In this document: positions 59,617 through 61,551 of the stretch, in pieces | Layout: every line of letters starts with the position of its first letter | Position numbering within the stretch: the first letter of the stretch is position 1 | NCBI GenBank assembly: GCA_964411255.1 | Contig: CAYPKD010000002.1 | Coordinates: 34,100 to 98,099, forward strand | Direction: 5' to 3' | Source: an uncultured Gammaproteobacteria bacterium | GTDB lineage: Bacteria > Patescibacteriota > Patescibacteriia > UBA11705 > DATKZF01 | Length of the DNA: 64,000 nucleotides | Made by a program: the position numbers and the translations under genes | The notes under the pieces: generated by a model | What the model was told of the DNA's origin: nothing | Seen by the model: only the letters and a program-made list of their open reading frames with translations | Databases searched by the model: none

Positions 59617-59630
59617 ATTTGGCTGGCGCG

Positions 59631-59715
59631 GGTCTGGTAACGACGAATTCGAATTCGTCGTTACCAGACCGTAGGGACAGAATAGTATTCTGTCCCTACA
59701 TCCCCGGACGGGGAT
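59631..59715. repeat. composite palindrome cluster: 40-nt perfect palindrome + REP gtagggacagaatagtattctgtccctac + ccccggacgggg
   Basis: BIME-like; mirrors cluster at 61392-61505. Confidence 0.7.
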
Positions 59716-59772
59716 TGCGCCCTGCCATTTTTACCCAAATTTACACAATTTTTTAATATTAATTACAACCTA

Positions 59773-59801
59773 TTGACAAAGTTAATAATAATTGATATAA
59801 T
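59773..59801 (+). promoter_or_regulatory. consensus sigma70-type promoter ttgaca-17-tataat inside mutS-mutL spacer
   Basis: ttgacaaagttaataataattgatataat. Confidence 0.5.
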
Positions 59802-61390
59802 GTTTTATACTGATCTTTGAATTACAGTTTCTGCGGAAAAGGGAATTGGGCTATCGATTTAAGGACCCTTTAAGAATTATATGTTAAGGCTTGTTTAGCT
59901 TCGGCTGGACAGGTGACAAAGCGCTACGGTTTGTTTCGTTTCGGCGGGATGATCCAAGGGCGCTGGCCCCACCCTTTTTCGCAGAATTTCTTTACAATAC
60001 AGTTCCTGCGGGCGGGCATTGTTGCCCCACCCTTTGATCGCGAGGAAAAGTGAAGCTCTCATCTGCCAGCATTGTGTTCGGTGGGGAGGGTAAATTGATC
60101 TCGCAACATTGCTGGGGCGTGTTAATAAACTCGTCCCGCAGGATTTCCTTACAATACAGTTCCTGCGGAAAGTTGGCGGGCAGACCCTCACTCACGGAAA
60201 GTTGATTGGCCGGATGATCCTCATTTGGTTATCCTTTGCTGACCGTAAAATGGTGTCTTTCCGGCGTCAGGTGTTCTTTGTTTGCCGTAAAAACGGTTTT
60301 TTTCCGTAGGGATCCTTTGTTGGCAACTCCTTTGGAGTTCCCATAGTGGACTCATATTGTCACAAGGCTTCGGATATTTCTGAATGCATGGACCTGCTAG
60401 GCTGATAGCCGGGGCAGAAGTGCATGCGGTGTAATCATTTAATATGATTACGGGTTTCTGTGACAAATATAGCATTTTCATGTGCTGTGAGTCCACACCT
60501 TTTTGATGGCATCGCCTCCCTCTGGGATCAAGGCGATTACCATAGGGGGCTTCTGGCAGTCCCTAAAGTAAAGCCGTTCAGTCGCCTTTTGCGACTGAAC
60601 AGAGGAGTCGCCTTCGATTGCGACTCCCAGGCTAAGATACCAGAGCAGGGACCTATGCTTTGGAGTAAAATTCAGAAGGTGTGGCAGCCTTCCTGGAGAT
60701 GAGCATTGGTTTTTTTAAGCTCATTCATGCCAAGACCGTTAACGTGCCATCAGCGTGGTCTTTTGAATGGAGGTTCACATTCAAAAGACCAACCTTGTTT
60801 TGTATCAGATTCAGGCACTGCCAGTCAGTGTTTATGAATCTGTATTTGATTCCCAGGCGATCACGCTTTTACAAGCGGTTATGAGCCTGTTTGAACATAG
60901 AGGCGTTTCTTCAATAGAAGCGCCTCTTACTTTTGAAAATATTGACAAAATAGTCAGTAATTGTTATTTTAAATACGCTGCTGCTTGCAGCGTTCTCATG
61001 ATGCTGGCGTGATGTTCTGTCGCTCATCACGCTGAAAAGGGGGCTTGGCACCCCTTGGCTGGTTTTTTGGGTGGATTTCGGCCAGGGTCTTCTCCAGGCC
61101 CGTAAGCCAAGATACCAGAGCAGGAGCCTATGCTCTGGATTGAAATTCAGAGAGATTGGCAATCTTTCTGAAGGCCCTGCAGTTTCGGCTGCTTGTGCTC
61201 TATGCCAAGAAAAGCCCATGGTGGATCATGTTTGGGCGTTTGCAGGTGGGATTAAACATGATTGCTCCGAAATATGCCTCTATGGTGCAGGCTCGCATTC
61301 AAGAGGCAACTAAAATTACGCGCCATGCGCGTTCACATTTTATAAAGCGTTTTCCTCAGTGGAAAACGTTTTTTCTTTCTAAATTTTATT
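59802..61390 (+). ncRNA. candidate large structured noncoding region (class unknown), ~50 percent GC in a ~33 percent GC genome
   Basis: No ORF with genome-typical composition; repeated hairpins at 59978-60011 and 60147-60168; ~75-nt duplicated hairpin segments at 60630 and 61100; terminator-like 61045-61075. Confidence 0.35.
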
Positions 61391-61391
61391 G

Positions 61392-61505
61392 CAGCAGGGC
61401 GTGAACGCGTGTATAATGCACGCGTTTGTAGGGACAGGTCGCGACCTGTCCCTACGCCCGGAAACGGCGAATTCTAATTCTCCGTTTCCGGGCCTCGCCC
61501 TGCTG
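61392..61505. repeat. composite palindrome cluster bracketed by cagcagggcg/cgccctgctg: aacgcgtgtataatgcacgcgtt + REP gtagggacaggtcgcgacctgtccctac + cccggaaacggcgaattctaattctccgtttccggg
   Basis: Direct inspection. Confidence 0.7.
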
Positions 61506-61551
61506 TATTCCTTTTTGCATTTCAATAATTTTATGATAAGCTATTTACACT

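Follow-up and report, generated by a model that had tools for sequence, protein, structure and literature searches.

The 64,000-nt stretch analysed here (positions 34,100 to 98,099 of contig CAYPKD010000002.1, hereafter the window) carries the DNA-repair genes mutS and mutL on the + strand. The 1935-nt spacer between them (59617–61551, the mutS stop being at 59616 and the mutL start at 61552) is the subject of this report, as a candidate locus for large structured non-coding RNAs (ncRNAs). By its MutL and MutS homologues, the window belongs to Patescibacteria and lies close to Falkowbacteria. A search for the segment in related genomes, which had been suggested in a preliminary description of the spacer, was made by retrieving the gaps of relatives with MutL or MutS as anchors, and it uncovered a homologous element, on the same strand, in the mutS–mutL gap of six related loci, designated L005, L008, L009, L010, L012 and L102.

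At 46.3% GC, as compared with 35.3% for the whole window, the spacer is GC-rich, as the preliminary description had stated with ~50 versus ~33 percent. GC content amounts to 45–53% per 300 nt between 59850 and 61500, and within the 64 kb the spacer is the sole sustained GC-rich stretch and the sole GC-rich gap without an open reading frame (ORF). Since the 1935-nt sequence is 100% identical in three independent assemblies, it is no assembly artefact. A decayed protein gene was rejected because Pfam gives nothing credible for the eight small ORFs in the spacer (66–102 aa; best E 0.11, with scores far under the cut-offs) and no frame is conserved in comparison with L005, against which the gaps are mostly not multiples of three and indels break every reading frame; the spacer holds no credible ORF. 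Promoter-like sites number 9 in the spacer and 3.9 in shuffled sequences, and terminator-like sites 11 and 2.7, respectively. The whole window contains zero tRNA genes, ARAGORN detecting neither tRNA nor tmRNA, and at the gathering score Rfam 15 has zero matches in the window and in seven related loci.

Predicted transcription units and modules

The features of the spacer are listed below by window position and strand. REP stands for repetitive extragenic palindromic and MFE for minimum free energy.

59620–59727, no strand assigned: REP cloverleaf 1, an outer stem with three perfect hairpins, the middle one GTAGGGACAG..CTGTCCCTAC; DNA fold −48.8 kcal/mol, z = −13.8
59773–59801, +: promoter P1, TTGACA-17-TATAAT with a TG extended −10, 12 of 12 consensus matches; predicted start ~59808
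59808–60935, +: ncRNA 1 (RNA1), predicted transcript of ~1.13 kb bounded by P1 and T1, with modules M1–M4 and B1, a 3' region and T1
59811–59829, +: linker 1, boxA-like UGAUCUUUGAAUUACAGUU; homologous leaders in L010 (7050) and L102 (3621)
59829–59986, +: module M1, 12-bp closing stem UUCUGCGGAAAA / UUUUUCGCAGAA, also present in the MFE fold
59986–60004, +: linker 2, boxA-like AUUUCUUUACAAUACAGUU
60004–60143, +: module M2, an expanded hairpin A with closing stem UCCUGCGGG / CCCGCAGGA and inner stem GCCCC / GGGGC
60143–60161, +: linker 3, boxA-like AUUUCCUUACAAUACAGUU
60159–60271, +: module M3 (type X), homologous to L012 7672–7800
60272–60285, +: linker 4, boxA-like UGUUCUUUGUUUGC, which aligns with the L012 linker GGUUCUUUGAAGUUUCG
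60346–60496, +: module M4, closed by GUGGACUCAUA / UGUGAGUCCAC, specific to this genome and with no L005 counterpart
60503–60753, +: module B1, closing stem UUGAUGGCAU / GUGCCAUCAG; covariance model R1, 101.5 bits
60756–60791, +: 14-bp hairpin, conserved in L005
60899–60935, +: terminator T1, 12-bp stem (hairpin 60899–60927) and U-rich tail; homologous to the terminal terminator in L005, L008, L009, L010 and L102
60942–60970, +: promoter P2, TTGACA-17-TATTTT with TG, kept in L005; predicted start ~60977
60977–61380, +: ncRNA 2 (RNA2), predicted stand-alone B-type transcript of ~0.4 kb bounded by P2 and T2
61037–61056, +: internal hairpin GGGGGCUUGGCACCCC, helix P2 of module B2
61102–61220, +: module B2 core P3-P4-P5, paralogue of 60627–60741; R1, 110.8 bits
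61300–61338, +: 3' domain, hairpin ACGCGCcauGCGCGU; L010 and L102 have its homologue at the 3' end of their single RNA
61344–61380, +: terminator T2, 12-bp stem (hairpin 61344–61372) and U7; resembles the L012 terminator
61391–61506, no strand assigned: REP cloverleaf 2, inverted relative to cloverleaf 1, between T2 and the mutL promoter; z = −13.9
61515–61542, +: predicted mutL promoter, TTGCAT-16-TGaTAAGCT, 9 nt before the ATG; kept in L005, L008, L009, L012 and L102 (83–93% identity over 28–41 nt)

The locus therefore reads as two transcription units and is modular, both of which had been overlooked in the preliminary description. The consensus promoter given there at 59773 is a perfect TTGACA-17-TATAAT preceded by TG at the −10 element. 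The terminator given at 61045 is a different matter: the real terminators are the hairpins at 60899–60927 and 61344–61372, and the hairpin at 61037–61056 is probably not a terminator because it is homologous to a hairpin inside module B1 (60545–60563) and its L005 copy has no following T-run. A local tandem duplication in RNA1 (60234–60292; CTTTGCTGACCGTAAAA / CTTTGTTTGCCGTAAAA, 42 nt apart), of which L005 has a single copy, creates a terminator-like hairpin with a T7 run (60284–60304) in the middle of the predicted transcript.

The modules are GC-rich and are closed by helices of 7–14 bp, typically CCUGCGG/CCGCAGG. The first four modules of RNA1 are preceded by U-rich linkers with the consensus (A/G)UUYCUUUGAAUUACAGUU, which lie directly 5' of the 5' strand of the closing helices; within the window the full motif occurs only at this locus. 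The linkers of the window read GAUCUUUGAAUUACAGUU, AUUUCUUUACAAUACAGUU, AUUUCCUUACAAUACAGUU and GUGUUCUUUGUUUGC, and those of the relatives AUUCUCUUGAAAACAGUU and GGUUCUUUGAAGUUUCG in L012, GAACCUUGAAUUACAU in L010, and UGUUCUUUUGAAUUUCA and UGUUCUAUAACAA in L102. In the window, L010 and L102, the linker begins ~4–10 nt past the predicted start and recurs before internal modules.

The two hairpins that the preliminary description had placed 170 nt apart were recovered as a 32-nt palindromic repeat (59980–60011 and 60137–60168, 94% identity) with a spacing of 157 nt, and a partial third copy lies at 59814–59839. The duplicated segment with the ccagagc hairpin is also present, at 60631 and 61106, with a length of 68 nt and 79% identity, one copy having CCAGAGC..GCTTTGG and the other CCAGAGC..GCTCTGG. 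The blocks CCCCACCC, GCGAG, GGTGGGG and CTCGC indeed follow each other in pseudoknot order at 60022–60104, in an insert of ~90 nt in module M2, and the GCGAG/CTCGC pair is changed to GCGGG/CCCGC in L005, the closest relative; the similarity of M2 to L005 is 82% over 182 nt. Hairpin A, of which M2 is an expanded version, has the form CCUGCGGG..GCCCCG-loop-CGGGGC..CCCGCAGG and is found near the RNA 5' end in every homologous locus for which the 5' region is available. Module M3 has an alternative closing stem of 14 bp, formed by 60159–60172 with 60300–60313. Besides the conserved P3-P4-P5 core (60627–60741), module B1 has the hairpins P1 and P2 and another two hairpins that are inserted. The covariance model of this core, R1, recovers exactly seven copies, two each in the window and L005 and one each in L008, L010 and L102, with no copy in L012, in the more distant loci L016, L017, L100 and L101 or elsewhere in the window.

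Downstream of RNA2, the mutL start region (61515–61551) has no Shine-Dalgarno sequence. Since the predicted promoter ends 9 nt before the ATG, this suggests that the mutL mRNA is leaderless or nearly so in this lineage.

Homologous loci in related Patescibacteria

The six related loci are as follows, with the protein identity to the window and the length of the mutS–mutL spacer.

L005: MutL 88%; spacer longer than 1053 nt, the contig starting inside it
L008: MutL 72%; spacer 818 nt
L009: MutL protein the same as that of L008; spacer 450 nt, 35% GC
L010: MutL 71%; spacer 1151 nt
L012: MutL 64%; spacer 623 nt
L102: MutS 77%; spacer 1188 nt

Except for the short L009 allele, the spacers of the relatives are GC-rich. 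Recognisable homologues come from seven loci, representing six to seven species-level lineages. The TTGACA-17-TATxxT promoter is kept in L008, L009, L010, L012 and L102, as well as in the more distant L016 and L101, and it sits shortly after the mutS terminator wherever the contig includes the upstream end of the locus. Every homologous locus has an intrinsic terminator, the sequence of which is itself conserved. These conserved terminators, together with the conserved promoter that mutL has of its own, mark the RNA element as a probable independent transcription unit rather than a leader of mutL.

L008, L010 and L102 each have one predicted RNA of ~560–800 nt, and the parts of the locus follow each other as promoter, linker, hairpin A, variable modules, module B, 3' domain (ACGCGC..GCGCGU) and terminator. 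A split locus is seen in the window and L005: RNA1 ends at the homologue of the terminal terminator of the relatives, and RNA2 has a second module B and the ancestral 3' domain. As read from this arrangement, RNA2 goes back to a B domain that was duplicated, and a terminator and a promoter now separate the copies. L008 and L009 differ in that 421 nt of the former (7381–7801, comprising module B and the 3' domain) are replaced in the latter by an unrelated 56 nt (7749–7804), with flanks that are 99% identical. Turnover of modules therefore occurs even within a population, and hairpin A alone is constant.

Several comparisons bear on selection. Between the window and L005, the RNA segments are 73–82% identical and the fourfold degenerate sites of mutL 57%; RNA2, at 73% identity over 451 nt, has 36 structure-preserving changes in 116 predicted pairs. 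Between L008 and L010, identity reaches 90% in module B (98 nt) and 85% in the 3' domain (108 nt), as opposed to 68% for mutL at the nucleotide level and 43% at its fourfold sites. Module X of the window still aligns with that of L012 at z = 7.5 versus shuffles, although the fourfold sites are only 25% identical. Going by these figures, the RNA modules are under purifying selection, with conservation above the synonymous rate. Substitutions between the window and L005 are ~2–3 times rarer in paired than in unpaired columns (7/92 vs 24/82, 19/154 vs 31/129 and 46/232 vs 76/226).

In module B, pairing in helix P3 is complete (100%) across the seven sequences, with both-sided changes in five of the eight pairs; the covariation score of this helix is 0.565, as compared with 0.318 for shuffled alignments (0 of 500 reach the observed value) and at most 0.185 for slid partners. 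Helices P4 and P5 covary by inspection (UCUGAGAGC/GCUUUCAGA vs UCUAGGAGC/GCUCCUAGA and AUGAGC/GCUCAU vs AUGGUGC/GCAUCAU, respectively), P4 being out of register in one subgroup of the automatic alignment. In all 14 modules examined in the homologous loci, a closing helix of 7–14 bp is kept while its sequence differs, examples being CCUGCGG/CCGCAGG, CCCGCGAG/CUCGCGGG, CCUGUGG/CUACAGG and CCUGCA/UGCAGG.

The changes and the predicted folds both favour the + strand. One-sided changes of the G-U type in RNA2 number 26 on the + strand vs 9 on the − strand, and MFE values of −187, −250 and −155 kcal/mol on + compare with −134, −226 and −135 kcal/mol on −, so that + is more stable by 20–50 kcal/mol. 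The MFE of RNA1 is −444 kcal/mol. Its fold z-scores are −5.2 (+) vs −0.5 (−) for the 5' half and −9.4 (+) vs −8.6 (−) for the second half, with −0.5 for a mutS control; RNA2 has a fold z of −3.75.

In more distant Patescibacteria, with MutL 47–50% identical, the content of the gap differs. L016 (5408–5862, z = −4.2) and L101 (4512–4950, z = −7.3) have predicted, highly folded GC-rich RNAs of ~430 nt with a TTGACA-17-TATAxT promoter in the same gap. A putative small RNA of ~70 nt with its own promoter and terminator lies in L016 as well (~5245–5317), and the gap of L017 has three hypothetical ORFs with no Pfam domain on record. A metagenome scan with MutL re-found L005 and nothing further, a genome-collection scan with the MutL alignment returned only distant MutL loci from outside Patescibacteria (L019–L098), and viral scans gave one chance match inside a coding region for the hairpin A/motif B pair of searches and otherwise none. 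Metagenome contigs often end inside the mutS–mutL spacer (L004, L005–L007 and L011), which suggests that repeats or strain variation break assemblies there.

Two observations concern neighbouring genes. The mutS gene of L102 is called as two ORFs (850–1344 and 1407–3275, with domains I-II and III-V, respectively), which could reflect a frameshift, a pseudogene or an assembly error. Upstream of mutS in the window (~53000–56000), two small GIY-YIG domain ORFs of ~95 aa flank alaS (L001 1943–2233 and 4412–4699); they may be homing-endonuclease-like genes.

Interpretation of the locus and alternatives

We consider it probable (roughly 70%) that the spacer is a functional, structured ncRNA locus that is independently transcribed and vertically inherited, transcription being inferred from motifs. 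The suggestion of a large structured RNA locus of unknown class, made in the preliminary description, is supported by the lack of Rfam and Pfam matches, by syntenic conservation, by compensatory changes and by folding on the + strand. The RNA family appears not to have been described yet and, as far as seen, is restricted to one lineage of Patescibacteria.

Its production could follow that of ribosomal RNA. In the proposed mechanism, the near-consensus promoter would drive high expression; the linkers would act as boxA and load NusB and NusE, and the long untranslated transcript would escape Rho; the two strands of each closing helix, of which the 5' one is tethered, would then pair; and the closed modules would be either released by a double-strand RNase or kept as a multi-domain protein-binding scaffold. 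We take the conserved element of the mycoplasma 16S-23S spacer to be a boxA, which is not stated in the paper on that spacer. The linkers of the window closely resemble this mycoplasma sequence, GTTCTTTGAAAACTGAAT (PMC4312986), and their core has UCUUU(A/G) in common with the E. coli boxA and CCUUG in common with that of Aquifex. The Aquifex boxA is the 12-mer GGCUCCUUGGCA, with positions 1, 6 and 9 being different in E. coli (PMC3177189). BoxA is known ahead of long untranslated RNAs, namely rRNA and CRISPR arrays, and it prevents Rho termination at the latter (PMC7665894). The placement of the linkers, at the start of a long untranslated RNA and just ahead of the 5' strand of long-range helices, mirrors that of an rRNA operon, and this is why an rRNA-like biogenesis is proposed. 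The model of boxA-type antitermination and processing is tentative, a possibility that we would put forward with some doubt. More doubtful still is the broader proposal of a modular class of ncRNA, made in the manner of an rRNA operon, in which domains would be swapped, duplicated and lost as cassettes around a constant 5' hairpin.

A number of observations weigh against these readings. The transcripts, their ends and their processing are all deduced from consensus motifs. Covariation is convincing for a few helices, in a small sample and with a score that is set against shuffles and is not phylogeny-aware, and several stems, such as GCCCC/GGGGC, are invariant. The degenerate boxA core is frequent in AT-rich background (1.5 per kb) and the leaders of L008 and L009 have no boxA-like element; for these reasons, position and resemblance are what a boxA role can appeal to. 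The RNAs of L016 and L101 have no detectable similarity to that of the window or to each other, and L015 (1–723), L017 (3711–5928) and L100 (4538–5000) have small hypothetical ORFs upstream of mutL and no RNA, which makes the gap a variable site across the wider clade. L009, with the same MutL as L008, has just hairpin A and a mini-hairpin where L008 has 421 nt; the organism could thus do without most of the RNA or replace it, and this speaks against an essential housekeeping role. Finally, the locus has many long perfect palindromes along with REP elements and a RAYT-like (REP-associated tyrosine transposase) gene in the window, so that some of the sequence may be palindromic DNA of a selfish kind.

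The REP elements deserve separate description. As indicated in the preliminary description, both ends of the spacer carry composite palindrome clusters with a common GTAGGGACAG..CTGTCCCTAC, which is found at 59671, 61428 and 33807. The cloverleafs are ~110 nt long, their hairpins are nearly loop-free and the middle one starts with GTAG. Cloverleaf 1, located just after the mutS stop, probably acts as a bidirectional terminator of mutS. L010 has two direct copies of a cloverleaf (6852–6964 and 7832–7944, 100% identical over 109 nt) and L012 has one (7378–7475), and related hairpins, GTAGGGAC or GTAGAGAC, are found in these two loci; in L008 and L009 the RNA is present without REP clusters, with only a simple hairpin terminator. 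The cloverleafs are REP-type elements between the transcription units and outside the RNA, and are not the ends of a transposon or island. The RAYT-like ORF (33537–34112, +, 191 aa) matches Pfam Y1_Tnp with E = 1.2e-4 and 22.6 bits, under the cut-off of 23, and in its C-terminal half only. The hairpin at 33807–33835 lies in frame inside this coding sequence.

It is unlikely that the entire spacer is selfish palindromic DNA, that is, REP-like elements or miniature inverted-repeat transposable elements plus debris at a permissive hotspot, with the hairpins recognised as DNA by a transposase of the RAYT type. Such an origin would account for the REP cloverleafs at both ends and the third GTAGGGACAG hairpin in the RAYT-like ORF, for the many perfect palindromes and the strain-level replacement between L008 and L009, and for the frequent contig breaks and the variable gap content of distant relatives. 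However, the internal modules, unlike REP, are confined to this locus within the 64 kb, and they are conserved well above the synonymous rate where synonymous sites are saturated. The G-U-compatible helix changes fit one strand only, and a consensus promoter and a conserved terminator flank the element in every species, with L008 and L009 lacking REP clusters altogether.

We see an equally small likelihood in a structured 5' leader of mutL, and perhaps of infA and ribosomal-protein genes, which would function as an attenuator, a riboswitch-like element or a nut-like antitermination site composed of boxA and hairpin A. The element has the same orientation as mutL and is always directly upstream of it, the succession of boxA-like linker and conserved hairpin is reminiscent of nut sites, and the U-tract of T1 is weak. 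Nevertheless, T2 combines a 12-bp stem with U7, the T1 sequence is conserved in five lineages, a REP cloverleaf intervenes between T2 and mutL in the window and in L010, and the conserved promoter of mutL follows. The variation of length and modules from ~190 to ~1500 nt is unlike an aptamer with an expression platform, and no riboswitch match was found; a cis-regulatory leader or riboswitch of mutL was rejected on these grounds.

A divergent member of a known RNA class (6S, RNase P, tmRNA, signal recognition particle (SRP) RNA, OLE, GOLLD, ROOL or HEARO), or a CRISPR- or TIGR-like array in which the 32-nt palindromes would be the repeats, is quite improbable. The consensus promoter is typical of stable RNA genes, RNAs of the 6S type are hard to detect by sequence, and the three palindromic repeat copies are spaced by 157–175 nt. 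Yet in a permissive Rfam search of the spacer together with L010, L016 and L101, none of the 4227 families matched even at E up to 10 save for chance-level hairpins of microRNA and small-RNA families (E 0.03–10, far under the gathering scores). This cmscan comparison, which had been proposed as a check on the spacer, thus showed no GOLLD, ROOL, OLE, HEARO, raiA, intron, RNase P, 6S, tmRNA, SRP, riboswitch or ribozyme, and ARAGORN found no tmRNA. Moreover, size and domain content vary at least ~five-fold, unlike RNase P, tmRNA, SRP and 6S RNAs. A CRISPR or TIGR array was rejected: the repeats are only three, the intervening 125–140 nt that would be spacers are conserved and folded, and there is no cas- or tas-like gene adjacent or cas-like domain nearby. 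The neighbouring hypothetical proteins have no PADLOC defence-model match, and their best Pfam E is 0.045, far under the cut-offs.

Three further candidates were discarded. Mimicry of the 16S 3' end (CCUGCGG..GGAUC as helix 45 plus anti-Shine-Dalgarno) did not align above shuffles or chance (p >= 0.07). The RNase P-like AAAGUCCGG of L008 is misplaced for such an RNA, lacks conservation in L102 and is negative in Rfam. The complementarity expected of an antisense or trans-target RNA is, for the rest of the window, no more than chance.

The least probable alternative, and the one by which the preliminary description had explained the spacer as a REP-bounded foreign insertion, is a horizontally acquired island or a prophage or plasmid remnant that splits a mutS–mutL operon: it would fit the GC content of 46% vs 35%, the inverted REP clusters at both ends and the 109-nt direct repeats, 100% identical, at both ends of L010, but the element occupies the same site in at least six lineages with a divergence that roughly tracks MutL, persists in L008 and L009 without REP clusters, which elsewhere lie outside the transcription units, has no integrase or transposase in or beside it and no blastn similarity to 50,697 phage and 72,556 plasmid records, and high GC is expected of a structured RNA in an AT-rich genome.

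If the spacer is indeed an ncRNA locus, our best guess for its cellular role is a protein-binding scaffold with hairpin A as the core; hairpin A is the likeliest functional core because it is the sole part present in all variants. The cassette pattern, if real, would point to a multi-domain ribonucleoprotein scaffold or to an RNA system under diversifying selection, as in defence or host interaction, and not to a fixed housekeeping RNA, and the ~430-nt RNAs of L016 and L101 would in that case be rapidly evolving representatives of one ancient locus. The genomes of Patescibacteria (the candidate phyla radiation) are tiny and leave little space for DNA that is not essential, and to our knowledge almost nothing has been reported on their non-coding RNAs, a literature search on the subject having returned nothing relevant. 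A 1.5-kb locus for a strongly promoted and selectively maintained RNA that matches no known family is for these reasons a candidate source of new RNA biology in a major bacterial branch that is uncultured. With its stem-closed modules, its rRNA-like linkers and the turnover of cassettes around a constant hairpin, it would be a natural case for the evolution of large RNAs by domain shuffling, and, should the boxA reading hold, antitermination by Nus factors would extend beyond rRNA and CRISPR arrays.

Comparison with known systems

The boundary palindromes are similar to REP elements associated with RAYT (IS200-like Y1) transposases in being short, perfect GTAG-headed hairpins that are present in several copies and placed after genes, and in having a Y1-transposase-like ORF in the same window. 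They differ in that three hairpins are nested here in an outer stem and one copy lies in frame in the RAYT-like ORF. Pneumococcal BOX (boxA-boxB-boxC) and enterobacterial ERIC elements are likewise modular, highly folded and, for the locus by prediction, transcribed intergenic sequences in which the number of modules varies among strains. Those elements, however, are dispersed in many copies, whereas the modules of the window are found at a single syntenic locus with a dedicated promoter.

The predicted transcripts have in common with rRNA operons and boxA-led CRISPR loci a strong promoter and a long, untranslated, GC-rich, folded RNA. As in rRNA operons, boxA-like U-rich elements are found at the 5' end and between domains, and the domains are enclosed by flanking helices (PMC3177189, PMC7665894). 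In contrast to these systems, the locus has no rRNA, tRNA or CRISPR repeat-spacer content and its domains differ from species to species and from strain to strain; at 7–14 bp, the closing helices of the modules are shorter than the RNase III stems of rRNA, and boxA is identified here by resemblance.

The closest parallels in size and setting are the OLE, GOLLD, ROOL, raiA and HEARO RNAs, which, like the RNAs proposed here, extend over hundreds of nucleotides with many conserved helices, belong to one lineage, have their own promoter and terminator and occupy a GC-rich, ORF-free intergenic region in an AT-rich genome. The spacer has no match in sequence or structure to any of them in Rfam 15 and no signature gene (oapA or IS605 orfB), its architecture is a variable chain of stem-closed modules as opposed to one fixed fold, and its host belongs to Patescibacteria. 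Large, lineage-specific, structured ncRNAs are thus a known general kind, among which the modular, rRNA-operon-like build suggested for this locus would be unusual.

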